A stretch of DNA of 27,330 nt from Rhodobacterales bacterium. Its GTDB lineage: Bacteria > Pseudomonadota > Alphaproteobacteria > Rhodobacterales > Rhodobacteraceae. Positions 10,204 through 26,435 of this stretch are shown in pieces. Positions within the stretch are counted from its first letter, which is position 1. Every line of letters starts with the position of its first letter. The stretch is from assembly GCA_031385205.1 (NCBI GenBank), contig JANNBG010000259.1, positions 1-27,330 on the forward strand. Reading direction: 5' to 3'. The notes under the pieces are model-generated. The model was given only the letters and a program-made list of their open reading frames with translations. It had not been told where the DNA came from and did not search any database. The translations under genes were made by a program, and so were the position numbers.

Positions 10204-11376
10204 TTATCGTTTTGCAGCTGCGATCTTTTCCATCACATCCCCAAGGGCTAATTCATAAACCGCAAGTTTTTGCAGACCCAGATCGTATGCAGCCAGCATG
10301 TCATGGGCAAGGGCCGCGCGCCCGTCATACGCTGTCTGGATCTTTTGTTGGATTGCCGCCGCCGTCTCTGCCGTGCAATCAACCGTATGATGATATCCAA
10401 GGCTTCCAAAAAGGCCGGCAAACTTGCGGCTATACGCCATGGGAACCACCGGGACACCGGCTGAAAAGGCCGCGATGCAGGCATGCATCCGGGCCCCCAT
10501 GAAGAAATCCAGACCGGCGATGTAGCTTTTCGCCTCCGATGGTGACGCAAAGCGCGGCGCAACTTTCACCTCTGGAAACGCCACTGCAAGGTCGAGAGAG
10601 GCCTGATAATCATCTTCTAATGCGCTGCGATCCCAAGAAATGACATGTGGTACCAGATGCAGCTCACACCCATCGGGGTGGGCTAAGAAATCTGTGATAA
10701 GACTGCGGATCAGCGTACCGTAATCCATTTTCAGACCAAACATGTTATTGCGGGTATAGCCCCCATTCATCAGAAGACCCGAAACATTCAACCCAACCCG
10801 GACTGGGGTTCCCGCCGCCCGTGGCGCAGGCGGGGTGAAGGGCAACCGCAGTGCCACATCTGACGCCTCAATCGTTCTGCACCCAACGCCCATTGTCTGC
10901 AGCGCTGCCGTTGACAACGCATCCCGTGTCACCACGATCTTTGACATCCGGATAGATTGCGCTGCAATCGCCTGACGCAGGCGCGACCTGAACGGTCCGA
11001 TCGTCTGCGGCGCCAACACCAAAGCGCGACCTGACAGATGCACGAGGTATTTCAGCAGATGCATCTTGGTAAAGCGCTTCCAGCCGTAAATATCGGCAAA
11101 GCTGTCGCCACCGCCAATGTCAATCACCAGATCGTTTTGACGTACCGTACGGAAAAACGTGAAAGGATGACGCATCGGGCGTAACATCGTGACCTGCACG
11201 TCGTTGCCACAAATGTAGGGAGGCCGCGGCCCAAAGCTGTCGATGACGGTGATCTGAACATCAAGACCACGGACCTGTGCAATCTGACGCAGGATCTCGA
11301 CCTCGGATACGCTCAGCGCCCCCACCCCAAGGTTATCATTTTTGGCGGAATGGAACAGCAGTGCAATTTTAAGCAT
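10204..11376 (-). CDS. Polysaccharide pyruvyl transferase family protein (WcaK-like)
   Basis: NDNLGVGAL, DIGGGDSFADIYG, APQTIGPF, TRDALS, SDVAL and GARMHACIAAFSAGVPVVPMAYSRKF motifs. Confidence 0.9.
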   Translation of the reverse strand: MLKIALLFHSAKNDNLGVGALSVSEVEILRQIAQVRGLDVQITVIDSFGPRPPYICGNDVQVTMLRPMRHPFTFFRTVRQNDLVIDIGGGDSFADIYGWKRFTKMHLLKYLVHLSGRALVLAPQTIGPFRSRLRQAIAAQSIRMSKIVVTRDALSTAALQTMGVGCRTIEASDVALRLPFTPPAPRAAGTPVRVGLNVSGLLMNGGYTRNNMFGLKMDYGTLIRSLITDFLAHPDGCELHLVPHVISWDRSALEDDYQASLDLAVAFPEVKVAPRFASPSEAKSYIAGLDFFMGARMHACIAAFSAGVPVVPMAYSRKFAGLFGSLGYHHTVDCTAETAAAIQQKIQTAYDGRAALAHDMLAAYDLGLQKLAVYELALGDVMEKIAAAKR

Positions 11377-11397
11377 TATTTTTGCCCACGAGAGTCT

Positions 11398-11610
11398 TCA
11401 GTGATGCCGCAGTAGACCAAAATACCCGAGAGCCAATGCGGAATACTCTGGCAGAAACCATATCAGGCTTAAGAGGATAAAGACAAGCCGTGATGCATCG
11501 GTGAAACTGAAAATGCCTGTATAAGTTTTAGGACGACACCCCGTTACGAATGGGAAACGACCGTTCGCCCCGCTGCGGCTGGCAGTGCCAGCTATTATGC
11601 GGAGTTTCAC
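11398..11610 (-). CDS. Possible 70-aa hydrophobic ORF filling the gap between wzy-like and pyruvyltransferase genes
   Basis: GTG start overlaps the upstream TGA (GTGA 11610-11607); C-terminal hydrophobic stretch LVFILLSLIWFLPEYSALALGYFGLL. May be non-coding. Confidence 0.3.
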   Translation of the reverse strand: MKLRIIAGTASRSGANGRFPFVTGCRPKTYTGIFSFTDASRLVFILLSLIWFLPEYSALALGYFGLLRHH

Positions 11611-24295: not shown

Positions 24296-25519
24296 GTGTC
24301 ACAGGCTGCACCATCCAGTCCATCGCTTGCCCGCGTTGCCCGCGGCAACCTCTGTGCCGGATGCGGGGCCTGTGCCGGGCTGCTTCCCGCCAAGATTGGC
24401 ATGGTGGTCGCAGACCCCGGTTACCTGCGACCGCAGCAGACCGCACCGCTGTCCGCCTCCGAAGAGGCGACCATTGCCGCGATCTGTCCGGGTCTGGGGC
24501 AGCAGGTCGCAGCACAGGGCCGGGCGGACCATGTGCTTTGGGGGCCCTATCTCAGCATGGTGACGGGTTGGGCAACGCGGCCAGAGCTGCGCTTTGCCGG
24601 GGCCTCGGGCGGGGCGTTATCTGCCATCCTGCAGCATCTGCTTGATGTGGGTCATGTGGATGCCGTTGTGCAGACGGCCGCCGCACCCGATTTTCCGATC
24701 GGCAATATCGCGGTTGTCACGCATGATGCGGCGGGCATTCTTGCCGCCGCCGGGTCACGCTATGCCCCCTCGGCCCCACTCGCCCAGCTTGCGGCCCAGA
24801 TATCCGACGGGCGGCGCTTTGCCTTTGTCGGCAAACCCTGTGATGCAGCGGCATTGCGCGCGCTCTGTGCACAGGATGCGCATATTGCAGCCACCTTTCC
24901 AGTCATCCTGTCATTTTTCTGTGCAGGAGTGCCGTCCCATCGCGGTGGACAGGCGGTCCTCGCGGCACTGGGCACCACGCTGGCAGACACAGACCACTTC
25001 CGCTTTCGGGGCAATGGCTGGCCCGGGCAGGCCACAGCGCAGCTGAAAGACGGCACCGAACGGTCGATGAGCTATCATGAAAGCTGGGGCAATATCCTGT
25101 CAAAGCATGCCCAGAATCGCTGCAAGATCTGTGCCGATGGCACGGGCGTCGCTGCAGATGTCGTCTGCGCCGATGCTTGGGAAAGCGATGATGCGGGGTA
25201 TCCGCTGTTCACCGAAGCCCCCGGTGTCAGCCTGATTGTCGCCCGCACGGCTTTGGGTGCCGATCTGATTGCAGCCGCCCGCGCAGCGGGCAAGATCGAC
25301 ACGCAAGCCTTTGATATTGCGCGGCTTGCCGCCATCCAGCCCGGTCAGCGCGAACGCCGCCGCGCCCTGTTGGCGCGGCTGCTGGCGTTGCGGCTGGCTG
25401 GGCGTCCGGTTCCGCGTTATCTGGGGCTGCACCTGTGGGCTGCGGCACGGCAGAACCCACTGCTGCGCAATCTGAAGAACATCCTTGGCATGCTGCGCCG
25501 CACTTTGCGATCATCCTGA
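24296..25519 (+). CDS. Coenzyme F420 hydrogenase/dehydrogenase beta-subunit (FrhB/FdhB) family Fe-S protein, 407 aa
   Basis: CAGCGAC...ICPG ferredoxin-like cysteines; ASGGALSA, SRYAP, FVGKPC, FFCAG, FRGNGWPG and RCKIC.D...AD....DAW motifs. GTG 24296 sits 6 nt after AAGGAG. Confidence 0.9.
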   Translation: MSQAAPSSPSLARVARGNLCAGCGACAGLLPAKIGMVVADPGYLRPQQTAPLSASEEATIAAICPGLGQQVAAQGRADHVLWGPYLSMVTGWATRPELRFAGASGGALSAILQHLLDVGHVDAVVQTAAAPDFPIGNIAVVTHDAAGILAAAGSRYAPSAPLAQLAAQISDGRRFAFVGKPCDAAALRALCAQDAHIAATFPVILSFFCAGVPSHRGGQAVLAALGTTLADTDHFRFRGNGWPGQATAQLKDGTERSMSYHESWGNILSKHAQNRCKICADGTGVAADVVCADAWESDDAGYPLFTEAPGVSLIVARTALGADLIAAARAAGKIDTQAFDIARLAAIQPGQRERRRALLARLLALRLAGRPVPRYLGLHLWAAARQNPLLRNLKNILGMLRRTLRSS

Positions 25520-25706
25520 CCTTGGCTGCGCGCAAAAATATGGCCATCTGAGGCAGATCGCCTAAAATGCGCAAAATGGTTATTTTAACAGACTCAAAAG
25601 CGGTTTATGTTGGTAGCTTGCCATCATGTTTATGGTCTGGCGACGCGTTCTGATAGTTAATTTTCTGAATAGACCTCACCTTCTTCAATTGCCACGGAGA
25701 CCCATT

Positions 25707-26435
25707 TTGAAGCGCCCAACCACAGATGATCCACACTCTATCCGCGCCAAAATGCGCAGAGCCCGTTTCAGGTGGATTGAACGCATTATTGATAACATCT
25801 TGTTAGAAAAAGAAAAAGCCACGATCCTCGATATCGGAGGCCGCCGTGATTATTGGAAACTGCTGGCTCCCGCATACCATGACCGGGTGCAGATCACGAT
25901 TCTCAACCTCAGTGCAGATGTTGCCTTGGAAAACCAGAATGACGGCCTGACCATCGACATCGCGACGCGCGTGGGTGACGGCACCAACATGCCGGAGATG
26001 GCGGATCAGTCTTATGACCTGGCACATTCCAACAGTGTCATCGAACATGTCGGCCTGTATAAAAGCATGGCCGCGCTGGCCTCCGAGACCCGCAGGGTGG
26101 GCAAGGCTTACTACCTGCAGACGCCCAACTTCTGGTTCCCGCTGGAGCCGCATTATGGCATTCCGTTCTTACACTGGTTGCCCGAACCGACGCGGCTTTT
26201 CCTGCAATCCAGCGTCAACGTCGGCTTTGCGAAAAAGACCGACTGGGAGGGGGCGATGAGCCGTGTTGACCACACCCGCATCGTGTCACGGCGCCTGCTG
26301 CGGCATCTTTTCCCGGACGCTGTTCATGAAAACGAGCGTTTCGCCTTTCTCAACAAGTCGTTGGTGGCTTACAGAGATTATCCCAAAGGCATGCGCTTGG
26401 CGGCGATGTCCCCGCCGGACGCGTCCACCCCGTGA
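25707..26435 (+). CDS. Class I SAM-dependent methyltransferase (TTG start, 242 aa)
   Basis: GGAGA RBS before TTG 25707; ILDIGG, GDG..M...D.SYDLAHSNSVIEHVG and YYLQTPNFWFPLEPHY motifs. Confidence 0.85.
   Translation: MKRPTTDDPHSIRAKMRRARFRWIERIIDNILLEKEKATILDIGGRRDYWKLLAPAYHDRVQITILNLSADVALENQNDGLTIDIATRVGDGTNMPEMADQSYDLAHSNSVIEHVGLYKSMAALASETRRVGKAYYLQTPNFWFPLEPHYGIPFLHWLPEPTRLFLQSSVNVGFAKKTDWEGAMSRVDHTRIVSRRLLRHLFPDAVHENERFAFLNKSLVAYRDYPKGMRLAAMSPPDASTP

Follow-up and report, generated by a model that had tools for sequence, protein, structure and literature searches.

A conserved five-gene cassette that probably exchanges acyl groups on amino sugars in an exosortase XrtD-linked polysaccharide locus

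The window analysed here (27,330 nucleotides) is a complete 27-kb contig of a MAG that is 75% complete and consists of 814 contigs. The host of this slime-polysaccharide gene cluster is a marine Rhodobacterales-type bacterium. At positions 10204–26435, eight tailoring genes share the region with a pair of GT2 genes, with Wzx and Wzy, and with genes for two secreted beta-helix proteins (Table 1). The original prediction of eight modifying enzymes against only two glycosyltransferases was borne out by both Pfam scores and coordinates, with every tailoring gene at its predicted position and passing the Pfam threshold of one or more families; Wzy, Wzx, and the beta-helix/PKD/LamG/RTX protein had not been counted. 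This tailoring-heavy, glycosyltransferase-poor make-up was repeated in isolates with long contigs, Marimonas arenosa (L021) and Aliiroseovarius conchicola (L018 and L044), so the small number of glycosyltransferases is not an effect of contig truncation. The Wzy gene has the lowest GC content in the window (45.6%). No priming transferase, Wza, or Wzc gene was found on the 27-kb contig, and the Wzx/Wzy pathway is thus incomplete in view.

Table 1 Features of the window, with coordinates, strand, and supporting evidence
Feature	Position	Strand	Evidence
Protein with VPLPA-CTERM-like tail	451..1854	+	Tail: VPLPA motif, hydrophobic stretch, RRRKA end; TIGR03370 16.3 bits, below cut-off (25.35)
VPLPA-CTERM sorting-signal ORF	6431..6679	-	TIGR03370 36.8 bits, cut-off 25.35
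Sec-dependent beta-helix/PKD/LamG protein	8085..10190	+	Pfam domains; N-terminal hydrophobic signal
Polysaccharide pyruvyl transferase (frequent accessory)	10204..11376	-	PS_pyruv_trans 91.8 bits
Wzy-type polymerase	11607..12992	-	Wzy_C 36.6 bits; many hydrophobic segments
CE4 deacetylase, cytoplasmic by prediction, 225 aa (core)	13005..13682	-	Polysacc_deac_1 76 bits
FemX-like tandem-GNAT, PF13480+PF02388, FemAB/Acetyltransf_6 (core)	13696..14751	-	Pfam matches; ATGA overlap with upstream gene
CelD-like tandem-GNAT, PF13480, FemX fold (core)	14748..15995	-	Acetyltransf_6 61.7 bits
GT2a, GT2 glycosyltransferase (core)	16255..17247	-	Pfam Glyco_tranf_2_3 and Glycos_transf_2
DegT-family PLP aminotransferase, divergent (core)	17467..18588	+	Pfam DegT 91.4 bits, N-terminal half only
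Beta-helix/PKD/LamG/RTX protein	18773..21928	+	Pfam domains; without signal peptide
Hexapeptide (XAT-type) acetyltransferase (accessory)	22003..22695	-	Hexapep 29.7 bits, cut-off 27
Wzx/MOP flippase	22772..24163	-	Polysacc_synt_3 123 bits
FrhB/FdhB-like Fe-S flavoprotein (accessory)	24296..25519	+	FrhB_FdhB_C 104.5 bits, FrhB_FdhB_N 64.4 bits
Class I SAM methyltransferase (rare accessory)	25626..26435	+	Methyltransf_11 24.7 bits, cut-off 21.2 (borderline)
Second GT2 glycosyltransferase, cut by contig end	26454..27329	-	Glycos_transf_2 75.7 bits

Synteny across related loci defined a core cassette in which DegT is divergent from GT2a-CelD-like-FemX-like-CE4. The cassette was syntenic in approximately two dozen loci at protein identities of 40–70%, which indicates that the arrangement is not due to chance. 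Its carriers are mostly Rhodobacterales (Paracoccaceae and others), plus Kordiimonas and Aestuariivirga, and it is rare (7 of 401 sampled genera). DegT and GT2a are divergently transcribed in most related loci, while the GNAT pair, CE4, and GT2a are co-oriented and often translationally coupled. In the window, the stop of the CelD-like gene and the start of the FemX-like gene overlap as ATGA (14748–14751), and CE4 adjoins the FemX-like gene in 24 of 25 loci. The earlier interpretation of the eight-enzyme toolkit was upheld in part: the GNAT pair, CE4, and DegT, with one GT2, form the conserved cassette, whereas the other four enzymes (methyltransferase, FrhB, hexapeptide acetyltransferase, and pyruvyl transferase) vary between loci as accessories and fall outside it. 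Three Fem-fold enzymes instead of two were present in some other loci, and the wider Fem family includes CE4-Fem, Fem-Fem, Fem-GT1, and Fem-GNAT fusions in glycan contexts. Signal peptides were found in none of the five cassette proteins, and the only transmembrane candidate among them was a single C-terminal hydrophobic segment in GT2a (residues 277–303). Judged by sequence, all five look cytoplasmic and, without signal peptides, would act on cytoplasmic precursors.

The model of the FemX-like protein (pLDDT 92.9) has a FemX-type tandem-GNAT fold without the FemA-type coiled-coil arm. Compared with the PDB, its matches at ranks 1 to 14 were all aminoacyl-tRNA-dependent enzymes, including Sba18/Sbb17 with the bound amino-sugar substrate streptothrisamine, FemX_Wv (TM 0.71–0.75), FemX_Sa (0.77), FemA, and MprF; CoA-dependent tandem GNATs entered the list only at rank 15 (TM 0.45). 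The model thus suggests that the protein is structurally closest to aminoacyl-tRNA-dependent enzymes, amino-sugar glycyl-transferases included. Residues G172-K173-W174-R175 and R312-F313-K314 were invariant in 28 sequences. The catalytic hallmark shared by these enzymes is an FK dipeptide with an essential lysine (FemX_Wv K305, DhpH-C F328-K329), and tRNA-dependent transfer of glycine to an amino sugar has a precedent in Orf11 (PMC12945691). A basic helix, GKWRTDLR in the FemX-like protein and SKxRRSQxRR in the CelD-like protein, aligned with a helix rich in Lys and Arg in FemX_Wv and FemX_Sa. The FemX-like protein also has a loop, G272-R273-x-x-R276-A277-G278, that loosely resembles the GNAT CoA pyrophosphate loop, and ends in an Arg-rich tail. 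Orthologues of the CelD-like protein are 394–411 aa long, and its start is therefore probably ATG 15995 or TTG 15941, not 16055. Its AlphaFold model (pLDDT 89.8) achieved its best TM-scores with FemX_Wv (0.70–0.71). G356, G358, Y360, and K363 are conserved, with Y362-K363 as the conserved catalytic residues. In profile-profile comparison, the CelD-like and FemX-like proteins matched weakly in statistical terms (hhalign probability 1.3%).

For CE4, a start at 13862 was rejected; the SD-backed ATG is at 13682. The catalytic residues D54, D55, H108, and H112 were conserved in the orthologue alignment, in which no conserved motif-5 His was found. In DegT, the catalytic K158 fell on the PLP lysine in alignments with perosamine synthetase and TlmJ, and its conservation, like that of E131 and D132, reached 95% or more across 16 orthologues. 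Of the five cassette genes, GT2a was conserved best (57–71% identity, 19 loci). Among the accessories, the pyruvyl transferase had homologues in 12 related loci (58–70% identity) and co-occurred with FrhB in L013, L015, L022, L028, and L029. The hexapeptide acetyltransferase was paired with Wzx in L013, L015, L022, L028, and L040, and its NCBIfam matches to Vat, CatB, WbbJ, and similar families were all below cut-off. A methyltransferase homologue was present only in L030 among the related loci, and homologues of the second GT2 were present in L013, L019, L022, L028, and L031 (52–75% identity). The two beta-helix proteins are paralogues; the Sec-dependent one has homologues in 10 related loci, while T1SS genes adjoin homologues of the RTX-containing one in L016 and L040. 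The latter is probably a T1SS-secreted glycan-active enzyme.

The link to VPLPA-CTERM proteins and exosortases, also part of the original prediction, proved real. XrtD (TIGR04152, 675 bits) is present in this genome with VPLPA-CTERM genes on its flanks, and it lies next to the cassette in Marimonas arenosa, L016, and A. conchicola and 2.3 kb off in G390. In the sample of 401 genera, XrtD was present in 6 of 7 cassette genomes versus 99 of 394 others; the majority of XrtD genomes are without the cassette.

We suggest that the cassette probably strips acetyl groups from amino sugars and adds other, possibly amino-acid, groups. Gene content, conservation, fold, conserved residues, and linkage to XrtD are results of the analysis, and the substrates, the order of steps, and the acyl donor are predictions. 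DegT would supply an amino sugar, and GT2a would add a sugar to a lipid-linked repeat unit. The metal-dependent CE4 would then expose an amine by removing a small N-acyl group, such as N-acetyl, and the two FemX-fold transferases (FemX-like K314, CelD-like K363) would place new acyl groups on the freed amines. These would most likely be amino acids from aminoacyl-tRNA, either attached singly to two amines or added in series as a pair. Variable, lineage-specific decorations may come from the methyltransferase, the hexapeptide acetyltransferase, and the pyruvyl transferase together with FrhB. Wzx would flip the unit, Wzy would polymerise it, and the secreted beta-helix proteins would process the polymer outside the cell. 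The earlier proposal that amines made by DegT or CE4 are acylated by the coupled GNAT pair gains from the conserved cassette, the ATGA coupling, the FemX fold, and the lack of signal peptides; its DegT part fares less well, as neither the window nor the isolates' compact loci contained a dehydratase or oxidoreductase that could provide a keto sugar. Its "chemically novel EPS" is a conjecture. The joint reading, namely that the window holds part of a Wzx/Wzy-type EPS locus that forms part of the XrtD (VPLPA-CTERM exosortase) system in this lineage, and that its five genes form a cytoplasmic deacetylate-then-reacylate module whose FemX-fold enzymes are most likely fed by aminoacyl-tRNA, has in our view an even chance of being right. 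Points against it are the CoA-loop-like sequence of the FemX-like protein, the missing conserved motif-5 His of CE4, the weak profile match between the two GNATs, the lack of a keto-sugar source for DegT, and the incomplete pathway on this contig.

A possible but less probable reading keeps the module and its acceptors and replaces the donor with acyl-CoA or an acyl or aminoacyl carrier protein, so that the amines would bear acetyl, hydroxyacyl, fatty, or carrier-delivered groups. Pfam classes both enzymes as GNAT "acetyltransferases", the best Foldseek E-value of the CelD-like protein was to the CoA-binding tandem GNAT 2wpw, and no dedicated tRNA or aaRS gene was found in 22 of 23 scanned sequences. 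However, the TM-scores of both proteins favour tRNA-dependent enzymes (0.70–0.77 versus 0.45–0.53), and both the basic helix and the lysine motif (FK or YK) typical of Fem enzymes are conserved. A 3450-aa FAAL-ACP-KS-AT synthase adjoining the cassette in L039 and the XrtD cluster in A. conchicola would fit a carrier-protein donor, but this PKS is unlinked to the cassette in five other genomes, and the window has neither a carrier protein nor an adenylating enzyme. The authors of the HfsK study stress that the donor is unpredictable (PMC5362036).

Two further explanations were considered. The DegT, N-acyltransferase, GT2, and CE4 set mirrors ArnB/ArnA/ArnC/ArnD, and would allow a side route in which an NDP-amino sugar from DegT has its amine protected by a GNAT, is passed to undecaprenyl phosphate by GT2a, and is deprotected by CE4 before flipping and cationic decoration of the polymer in the periplasm. 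We consider this improbable. The NCBIfam matches of GT2a to ArnC and of CE4 to ArnD (22 bits each) are far below the cut-offs (529 and 382 bits) and below the generic GT2 and CE4 scores. ArnC/GtrB-type enzymes have two transmembrane helices, whereas a single hydrophobic segment is present in GT2a. The annotated loci contained neither a GT-C (ArnT-like) transferase nor a small ArnE/F-type flippase, and the second and third Fem-fold enzymes would be left without a role. It is more improbable still, to the point of being nearly negligible, that the FemX-like protein extends lipid II by a cross-bridge residue and stands in an EPS locus by chance, even though source databases name it "lipid II:glycine glycyltransferase FemX" and it resembles FemX in sequence and fold. 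Its FemX equivalog score is 31 bits against a cut-off of 500, and alphaproteobacterial peptidoglycan has direct cross-links. Orthologues occur in just 7 of 401 genera of the family, and 7 further genomes from the host's genus lack them, so the gene is not housekeeping; the orthologues are flanked by the CelD-like GNAT and CE4 within polysaccharide loci.

Among known systems, the XrtA/PEP-CTERM-associated TIGR03019 (a FemAB family) and TIGR03006 (a polysaccharide deacetylase family) are likewise a case in which an exosortase-linked EPS locus encodes a FemAB-family protein alongside a CE4. The predicted exosortase partnership stands, with XrtD in place of XrtA, but membership of these families was rejected for both proteins (FemX-like, 36.9 bits versus 260; CE4, 21.8 versus 276), and an additional CelD-like Fem-fold enzyme, DegT, and GT2 occur here in fixed order. 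The deacetylate-then-acylate idea itself is not new. Caulobacter HfsK (FemX-like) and HfsH (CE4) have matching holdfast phenotypes, and HfsK was proposed to acylate amines exposed by HfsH, possibly as a source of protein attachment sites (PMC5362036). Both systems combine an alphaproteobacterial Wzx/Wzy-type adhesive polysaccharide with a cytoplasmic CE4 and a tandem-GNAT enzyme that is closest to FemX among solved structures; an Arg-rich tail is common to HfsK, compared by description, and the FemX-like protein. In contrast, one operon here joins two Fem-fold enzymes (three in some other loci) to a dedicated GT2 and DegT, the cassette is linked to XrtD whereas holdfast has Hfa anchor proteins, and its CE4 scores 37.5 bits against the HfsH cut-off of 400. 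Orf11/Sba18/Sbb17 of streptothricin-type pathways share the FemX-type fold and transfer glycine from Gly-tRNA to an amino-sugar amine (PMC12945691). They were the top structural matches of the FemX-like model (E 2e-18, TMt 0.74), and the FemX-like family profile also matches them by sequence (30.9 bits), but they are only approximately 20% identical and belong to Streptomyces secondary-metabolite pathways with a small-molecule acceptor and without a CE4, GT2, or Wzx/Wzy context. FemX/FemA/FemB/MurM share the tandem GNAT fold (TM 0.71–0.77), the basic helix opening domain 2, and the FK motif with catalytic Lys, but differ in identity (16–18%) and from the Gram-negative host and polysaccharide locus seen here. 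The logic of the cassette would be that of Nod-factor NodC-NodB-NodA, in which a glycan built by a GT2 loses one N-acetyl to a cytoplasmic CE4 and then receives a new acyl group on the freed amine from an N-acyltransferase. However, NodA is neither GNAT nor Fem-fold and uses acyl-ACP, the CE4 of the window scores 29.9 bits against the NodB cut-off of 240, and the product here would be a Wzx/Wzy polymer.

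The original prediction set eight tailoring genes against two glycosyltransferases in the polysaccharide region of the window. Gene calls annotated with Pfam and NCBIfam scans gave the same inventory (see the table), on what is the longest contig (C239) of a 3.43-Mb, 814-contig, 75%-complete MAG that, judged by its named relatives, falls within Paracoccaceae/Rhodobacterales. The tailoring-heavy, GT-poor make-up is also seen in complete loci of isolates. For the CE4 gene, the SD-backed ATG at 13682 rather than a start at 13862 is most likely, and the resulting 225 aa fit the orthologue lengths of 220-227 aa. 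For the CelD-like gene, 15995 or 15941 is the probable start, given orthologue lengths of 394-411 aa. The spacer between GT2a and the CelD-like gene measures 260-310 nt; in nearly all related loci the two genes abut or overlap. Between the VPLPA-CTERM genes and the EPS genes lie a DUF4143/AAA_14 ATPase, a Fic/DOC protein with DUF4172 and a serine resolvase, a stretch that suggests an island junction.

Features of the window and of related loci. Window entries from pyruvyl transferase to second GT2 are gene calls with Pfam/NCBIfam annotation; the last two columns give the number of Fem-bearing loci with the gene and its identity to the window protein.
Sequence	Feature	Coordinates	Strand	Fem-bearing loci	Identity (%)
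Window	VPLPA-CTERM gene, upstream of EPS genes	451-1854
Window	DUF4143/Fic/resolvase stretch	3726-7596
Window	VPLPA-CTERM gene, upstream of EPS genes	6431-6679
Window	Pyruvyl transferase	10204-11376	-
Window	Wzy	11607-12992	-
Window	CE4 deacetylase	13005-13682	-	24/25	43-56
Window	FemAB-like GNAT	13696-14751	-
Window	Arg-rich C-terminal helix of FemAB-like GNAT	13696-13760
Window	CelD-like GNAT	14748-about 15995	-	21/25	32-55
Window	GT2a to CelD-like spacer	15996-16254
Window	GT2 (GT2a)	16255-17247	-	19/25	57-71
Window	DegT	17467-18588	+	15/25 (several loci stop short of the DegT position)	45-57
Window	Beta-helix/PKD/LamG/RTX protein	18773-21928	+
Window	Hexapeptide acetyltransferase	22003-22695	-
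Window	Wzx	22772-24163	-
Window	FrhB-like protein	24296-25519	+
Window	Methyltransferase	25626-26435	+
Window	Second GT2, cut by contig end	26454-27329	-
L041 (contig C714, same MAG)	XrtD contig	1-8651
L016 (metagenome contig_28848)	GT2a::CelD open reading frame	7815-10004
L018 (Aliiroseovarius conchicola)	Third Fem-like GNAT	6569-7744
L021 (Marimonas arenosa)	Third Fem-like GNAT	15836-16909
L040 (metagenomic locus)	tRNA-Thr(TGT)	15108-15183
L044 (Aliiroseovarius conchicola)	FAAL-PKS	8520-18863
L039 (related locus)	FAAL-PKS	12129-21059

The FemAB-like (Fem-like) protein has many relatives of 45-63% identity in metagenomes and in a few genomes. To compare what surrounds them, we used the genes called on five contigs and tblastn searches of the window proteins against 18 named genome loci. 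The comparison across genomes proposed in the original prediction revealed a core of fixed order in the related loci: DegT is divergent from, or adjoins, an operon of GT2a, CelD-like, Fem-like and CE4 genes. The pyruvyl transferase, FrhB, hexapeptide acetyltransferase, second GT2 and beta-helix protein are frequent in related loci but movable, and the methyltransferase is rare. In five loci (L015, L018, L021, L039 and L040) a third Fem-like GNAT, more divergent and 355-391 aa long, stands beside DegT; this GNAT is absent from the window and in some loci is accompanied by a Sulfotransfer_3 gene. The order in M. arenosa is TPR, Poly_export, porin-like, XrtD, DegT, GT2a, CelD, Fem, CE4, MT, Wzx, PyrT, Fem3, Wzy and MT; that in A. 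conchicola is XrtD, followed at some distance by Wzx, Hexa, beta-helix, MT, DegT and Fem3, then GT2a, CelD, Fem, CE4 and Wzy, and finally nirS. Seven further genomes of the same genus lacked a Fem orthologue, mobile-element genes adjoin the locus, and Wzy has the lowest GC content in the window (45.6% at 12001-13000 versus 61.3% for the genome), as is typical of horizontally exchanged polymerase genes. Together, these three observations point to horizontal acquisition.

Two further candidates from these neighbourhoods were set aside. The 729-aa GT2a::CelD gene of the metagenomic locus L016 is an uninterrupted open reading frame, yet it was rejected as Rosetta-stone evidence and attributed to a frameshift, because the conserved C-terminus of GT2a and its stop codon are read in a different frame, some 100 nt ahead of the start of the CelD-like gene; an indel in the long-read assembly is the probable cause. 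A giant synthase of about 3450 aa (FAAL-ACP-KS-AT and further domains) lies beside the XrtD cluster in A. conchicola, where a PPTase gene follows it, and directly after CE4 in L039. The two are orthologous (57% identity over 3000 aa). Among the other cassette genomes, four have only an unlinked PKS of about 48% identity and a fifth has none, and the synthase was accordingly dismissed as a regular cassette partner or core component.

The predicted link to VPLPA-CTERM proteins held at the level of the locus, with an exosortase in the genome, substrates in the window and linkage in relatives. The exosortase, on contig C714 of the same MAG, is XrtD (TIGR04152, 675 bits versus a cut-off of 400; 675-690 bits when related loci are included), and the XrtA model gave only 139-150 bits on the same exosortases, below its cut-off of 208. 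On this 8.6-kb contig XrtD is flanked by the genes of two VPLPA-CTERM proteins of 204 and 234 aa, of a methyltransferase and of an RTX/tandem-95-repeat protein of 985 aa. The contig is probably the missing flank of the window locus, whose own VPLPA-CTERM ORF scored 36.8 bits; XrtD and the cassette stand on separate contigs in this MAG. In relatives the two are linked: XrtD adjoins DegT in M. arenosa and Wzx in A. conchicola, is 5 kb distant from Fem in L016 and 2.3 kb away in Carideicomes (G390), and shares the cassette contig in a further genome (G103).

We then asked how often the two co-occur in a sample made up of the present genome and a single representative of each of 400 further genera of the family, with Fem orthologues called at E <= 1e-40. 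XrtD was found in 105 of the 401 genomes: in six of the seven with a Fem orthologue (the exception is 85% complete) and in 99 of the 394 in which none was found. Fisher's exact test, which ignores kinship, gave P = 0.0016, or 0.005 when the present genome was left out. An obligate partnership is rejected in one direction, given that 99 of the 105 XrtD genomes lack the cassette. The cassette is thus an accessory that few XrtD-linked EPS loci carry; the majority of XrtD systems manage without it.

Signal peptides are absent from all five core proteins, and a hydrophobic segment was found only in GT2a (residues 277-303); the module thus works on the cytoplasmic side. CE4 matched PF01522 with 76.1 bits (cut-off 23.1). 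In an alignment of 25 sequences, its D54 and D55 (motif 1) and H108 and H112 (motif 2, H-x-x-x-H), which make up the base and metal triad, were kept in at least 95%. No His was conserved downstream of motif 3 in this short protein, and another residue may have taken over the role of the catalytic-acid His of motif 5. DegT matched PF01041 with 91.4 bits (cut-off 19.8), over profile positions 50-193 of 360 only. Two residues were sought in it, the Lys that binds PLP and the Asp in contact with the pyridine nitrogen: K158 aligns with the catalytic PLP Lys of the solved sugar aminotransferases 3bn1 and 5uid, and at least 95% of orthologues keep E131, D132 and K158.

The Fem-like protein has invariant G172-K173-W174-R175 and R312-F313-K314 across 28 sequences, and its C-terminus forms a conserved Arg-rich helix with the consensus ...LRARLRRR. 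In the CelD-like protein, G356, G358, Y360 and K363 occur in at least 95% of orthologues and Y362-K363 is conserved in the family. K305 is the sole reactive active-site residue of FemX from Weissella (FemX_Wv), and F328-K329 is essential in DhpH-C (2026 review, PMC12945691). Judged from sequence alignments, F313-K314 and Y362-K363 would correspond to this aromatic-plus-lysine pair of FemABX enzymes, with F313-K314 falling within one residue of the K305 position when measured relative to FemX D299. Direct homology between the two GNATs was not supported by profile-profile comparison, which gave a co-linear alignment short of significance (probability 1.3%, E 0.04); their kinship rests on a common fold and membership of one Pfam family.

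Structures predicted by AlphaFold from family alignments were of high confidence (pLDDT: Fem-like 92.9, CelD-like 89.8), and both showed the FemX fold. For the Fem-like model, PDB ranks 1-14 were all aminoacyl-tRNA-dependent enzymes, including Sba18/Sbb17 with the bound amino-sugar substrate streptothrisamine, FemX_Wv (TM 0.71-0.75), FemX of S. aureus (TM 0.77), FemA and MprF, and the first CoA-dependent tandem GNAT appeared at rank 15 (TM 0.45). Orf11 transfers Gly from Gly-tRNA onto the amino sugar of streptothrisamine (PMC12945691). The CelD-like model, likewise a tandem GNAT, has an additional long helix at the C-terminus; its best TM score (0.70, TMt) was to FemX_Wv, while its lowest E-value was to a CoA-binding tandem GNAT (TM 0.45-0.53). 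A scan of 23 sequences found no tRNA or aaRS genes in the loci apart from a single tRNA-Thr(TGT) between the third Fem-like gene and Wzy of one metagenomic locus (L040). This absence is neutral with regard to the donor, because Fem enzymes normally draw on cellular pools.

Alongside the observed content, order, location, fold, residues and linkage of the module, we infer a mechanism that runs from DegT supply to polymer processing. DegT would provide an amino sugar, GT2a would add a sugar to the lipid-linked unit and CE4 would expose an amine; the two Fem-fold enzymes would then transfer acyl groups to the free amines, the likeliest groups being amino acids from aminoacyl-tRNA. The accessories may add pyruvate ketal, acetyl and methyl groups before Wzx flips the unit, Wzy polymerizes it and secreted beta-helix enzymes process the polymer. 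We regard the general scheme, deacetylation or amination followed by N-acylation, as probable. Its main rival keeps every step but the donor, which would be acyl-CoA or a carrier protein; the CoA-binding match of the CelD-like model is compatible with it, and the top ranks of the Fem-like model argue for tRNA. Taken by itself, aminoacyl-tRNA as donor is a serious candidate that we hold only tentatively, so the scheme and this donor combined are at best evenly poised. An Arn-like Und-P route is unlikely, as is a role in peptidoglycan.

A further reading is that the Fem-fold enzymes place a free alpha-amino (aminoacyl) group on an EPS amino sugar, which would serve as the nucleophile when XrtD transfers cleaved VPLPA-CTERM proteins. 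This would be a Gram-negative counterpart of sortase A, for which the glycine bridge that FemXAB builds on lipid II is the attachment site of LPXTG proteins. Close linkage of XrtD and cassette in several genomes and the presence of XrtD in six of seven cassette genomes speak for it, but about 94% of sampled XrtD genomes (99/105) do without the cassette. We consider it improbable; at best, an aminoacyl acceptor would be one lineage-specific route.

The predicted dense tailoring toolkit was confirmed, and its interpretation is partly supported. The five-gene, XrtD-linked cassette with two Fem-fold enzymes is well defined and new, whereas EPS tailoring modules of this kind are already known and its chemistry is putative. 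If the FemX-fold pair does aminoacylate sugar amines, it would decorate a bacterial exopolysaccharide with amino acids in a tRNA-dependent (or otherwise non-ribosomal) way, a class of reaction proposed in 2006 for exosortase loci and in 2017 for HfsK and never demonstrated, and would offer a concrete candidate for the acceptor of exosortase-sorted proteins. Genetics and EPS chemistry are feasible, since the five-gene form in its compact, fixed arrangement occurs in culture, namely in the isolates Marimonas arenosa KCTC 52189, Aliiroseovarius conchicola and Carideicomes alvinocaridis. For the window by itself the outcome is more modest: an EPS tailoring module, horizontally patchy and of putative chemistry, whose annotation is well supported.

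Among known systems, the wider Fem-like family (688 clusters at 50% identity, E <= 1e-30) includes CE4-Fem, Fem-Fem, Fem-GT1, Fem-GNAT (Fem-Acetyltransf_1) and Fem-PGA_cap fusions in glycan contexts (P0236, P0122, P0132, P0222, P0227, P0178 and P0127); the CE4-Fem fusion lies beside an epimerase and a GFO/IDH/MocA oxidoreductase, and the Fem-Fem fusion follows Hexapep-GT2-CE4. A literature search on PF13480 and on the pairing of FrhB and pyruvyl transferases yielded nothing useful. The Fem-like/CE4 pair parallels the XrtA-associated TIGR03019/TIGR03006 pair but misses both thresholds widely (36.9 versus 260.35 bits and 21.8 versus 276.2 bits); membership was rejected on score, and the exosortase here is XrtD, not XrtA. 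Likewise, CE4 reached 37.5 bits against the cut-off of 400 for the HfsH equivalog NF050820, and the cassette resembles the HfsH (CE4)/HfsK (FemX-like) pair of Caulobacter in logic rather than membership. In HfsK, membrane association and c-di-GMP binding require a C-terminal extension that contains Arg, and the end of the Fem-like family is likewise Arg-rich; a comparable switch here would be hypothetical. In Caulobacter, hfsH or hfsK mutants shed a less cohesive holdfast, and the authors suggested that amines exposed by HfsH are acylated and, drawing a parallel to FemABX and sortase, that this might serve to attach proteins (PMC5362036).
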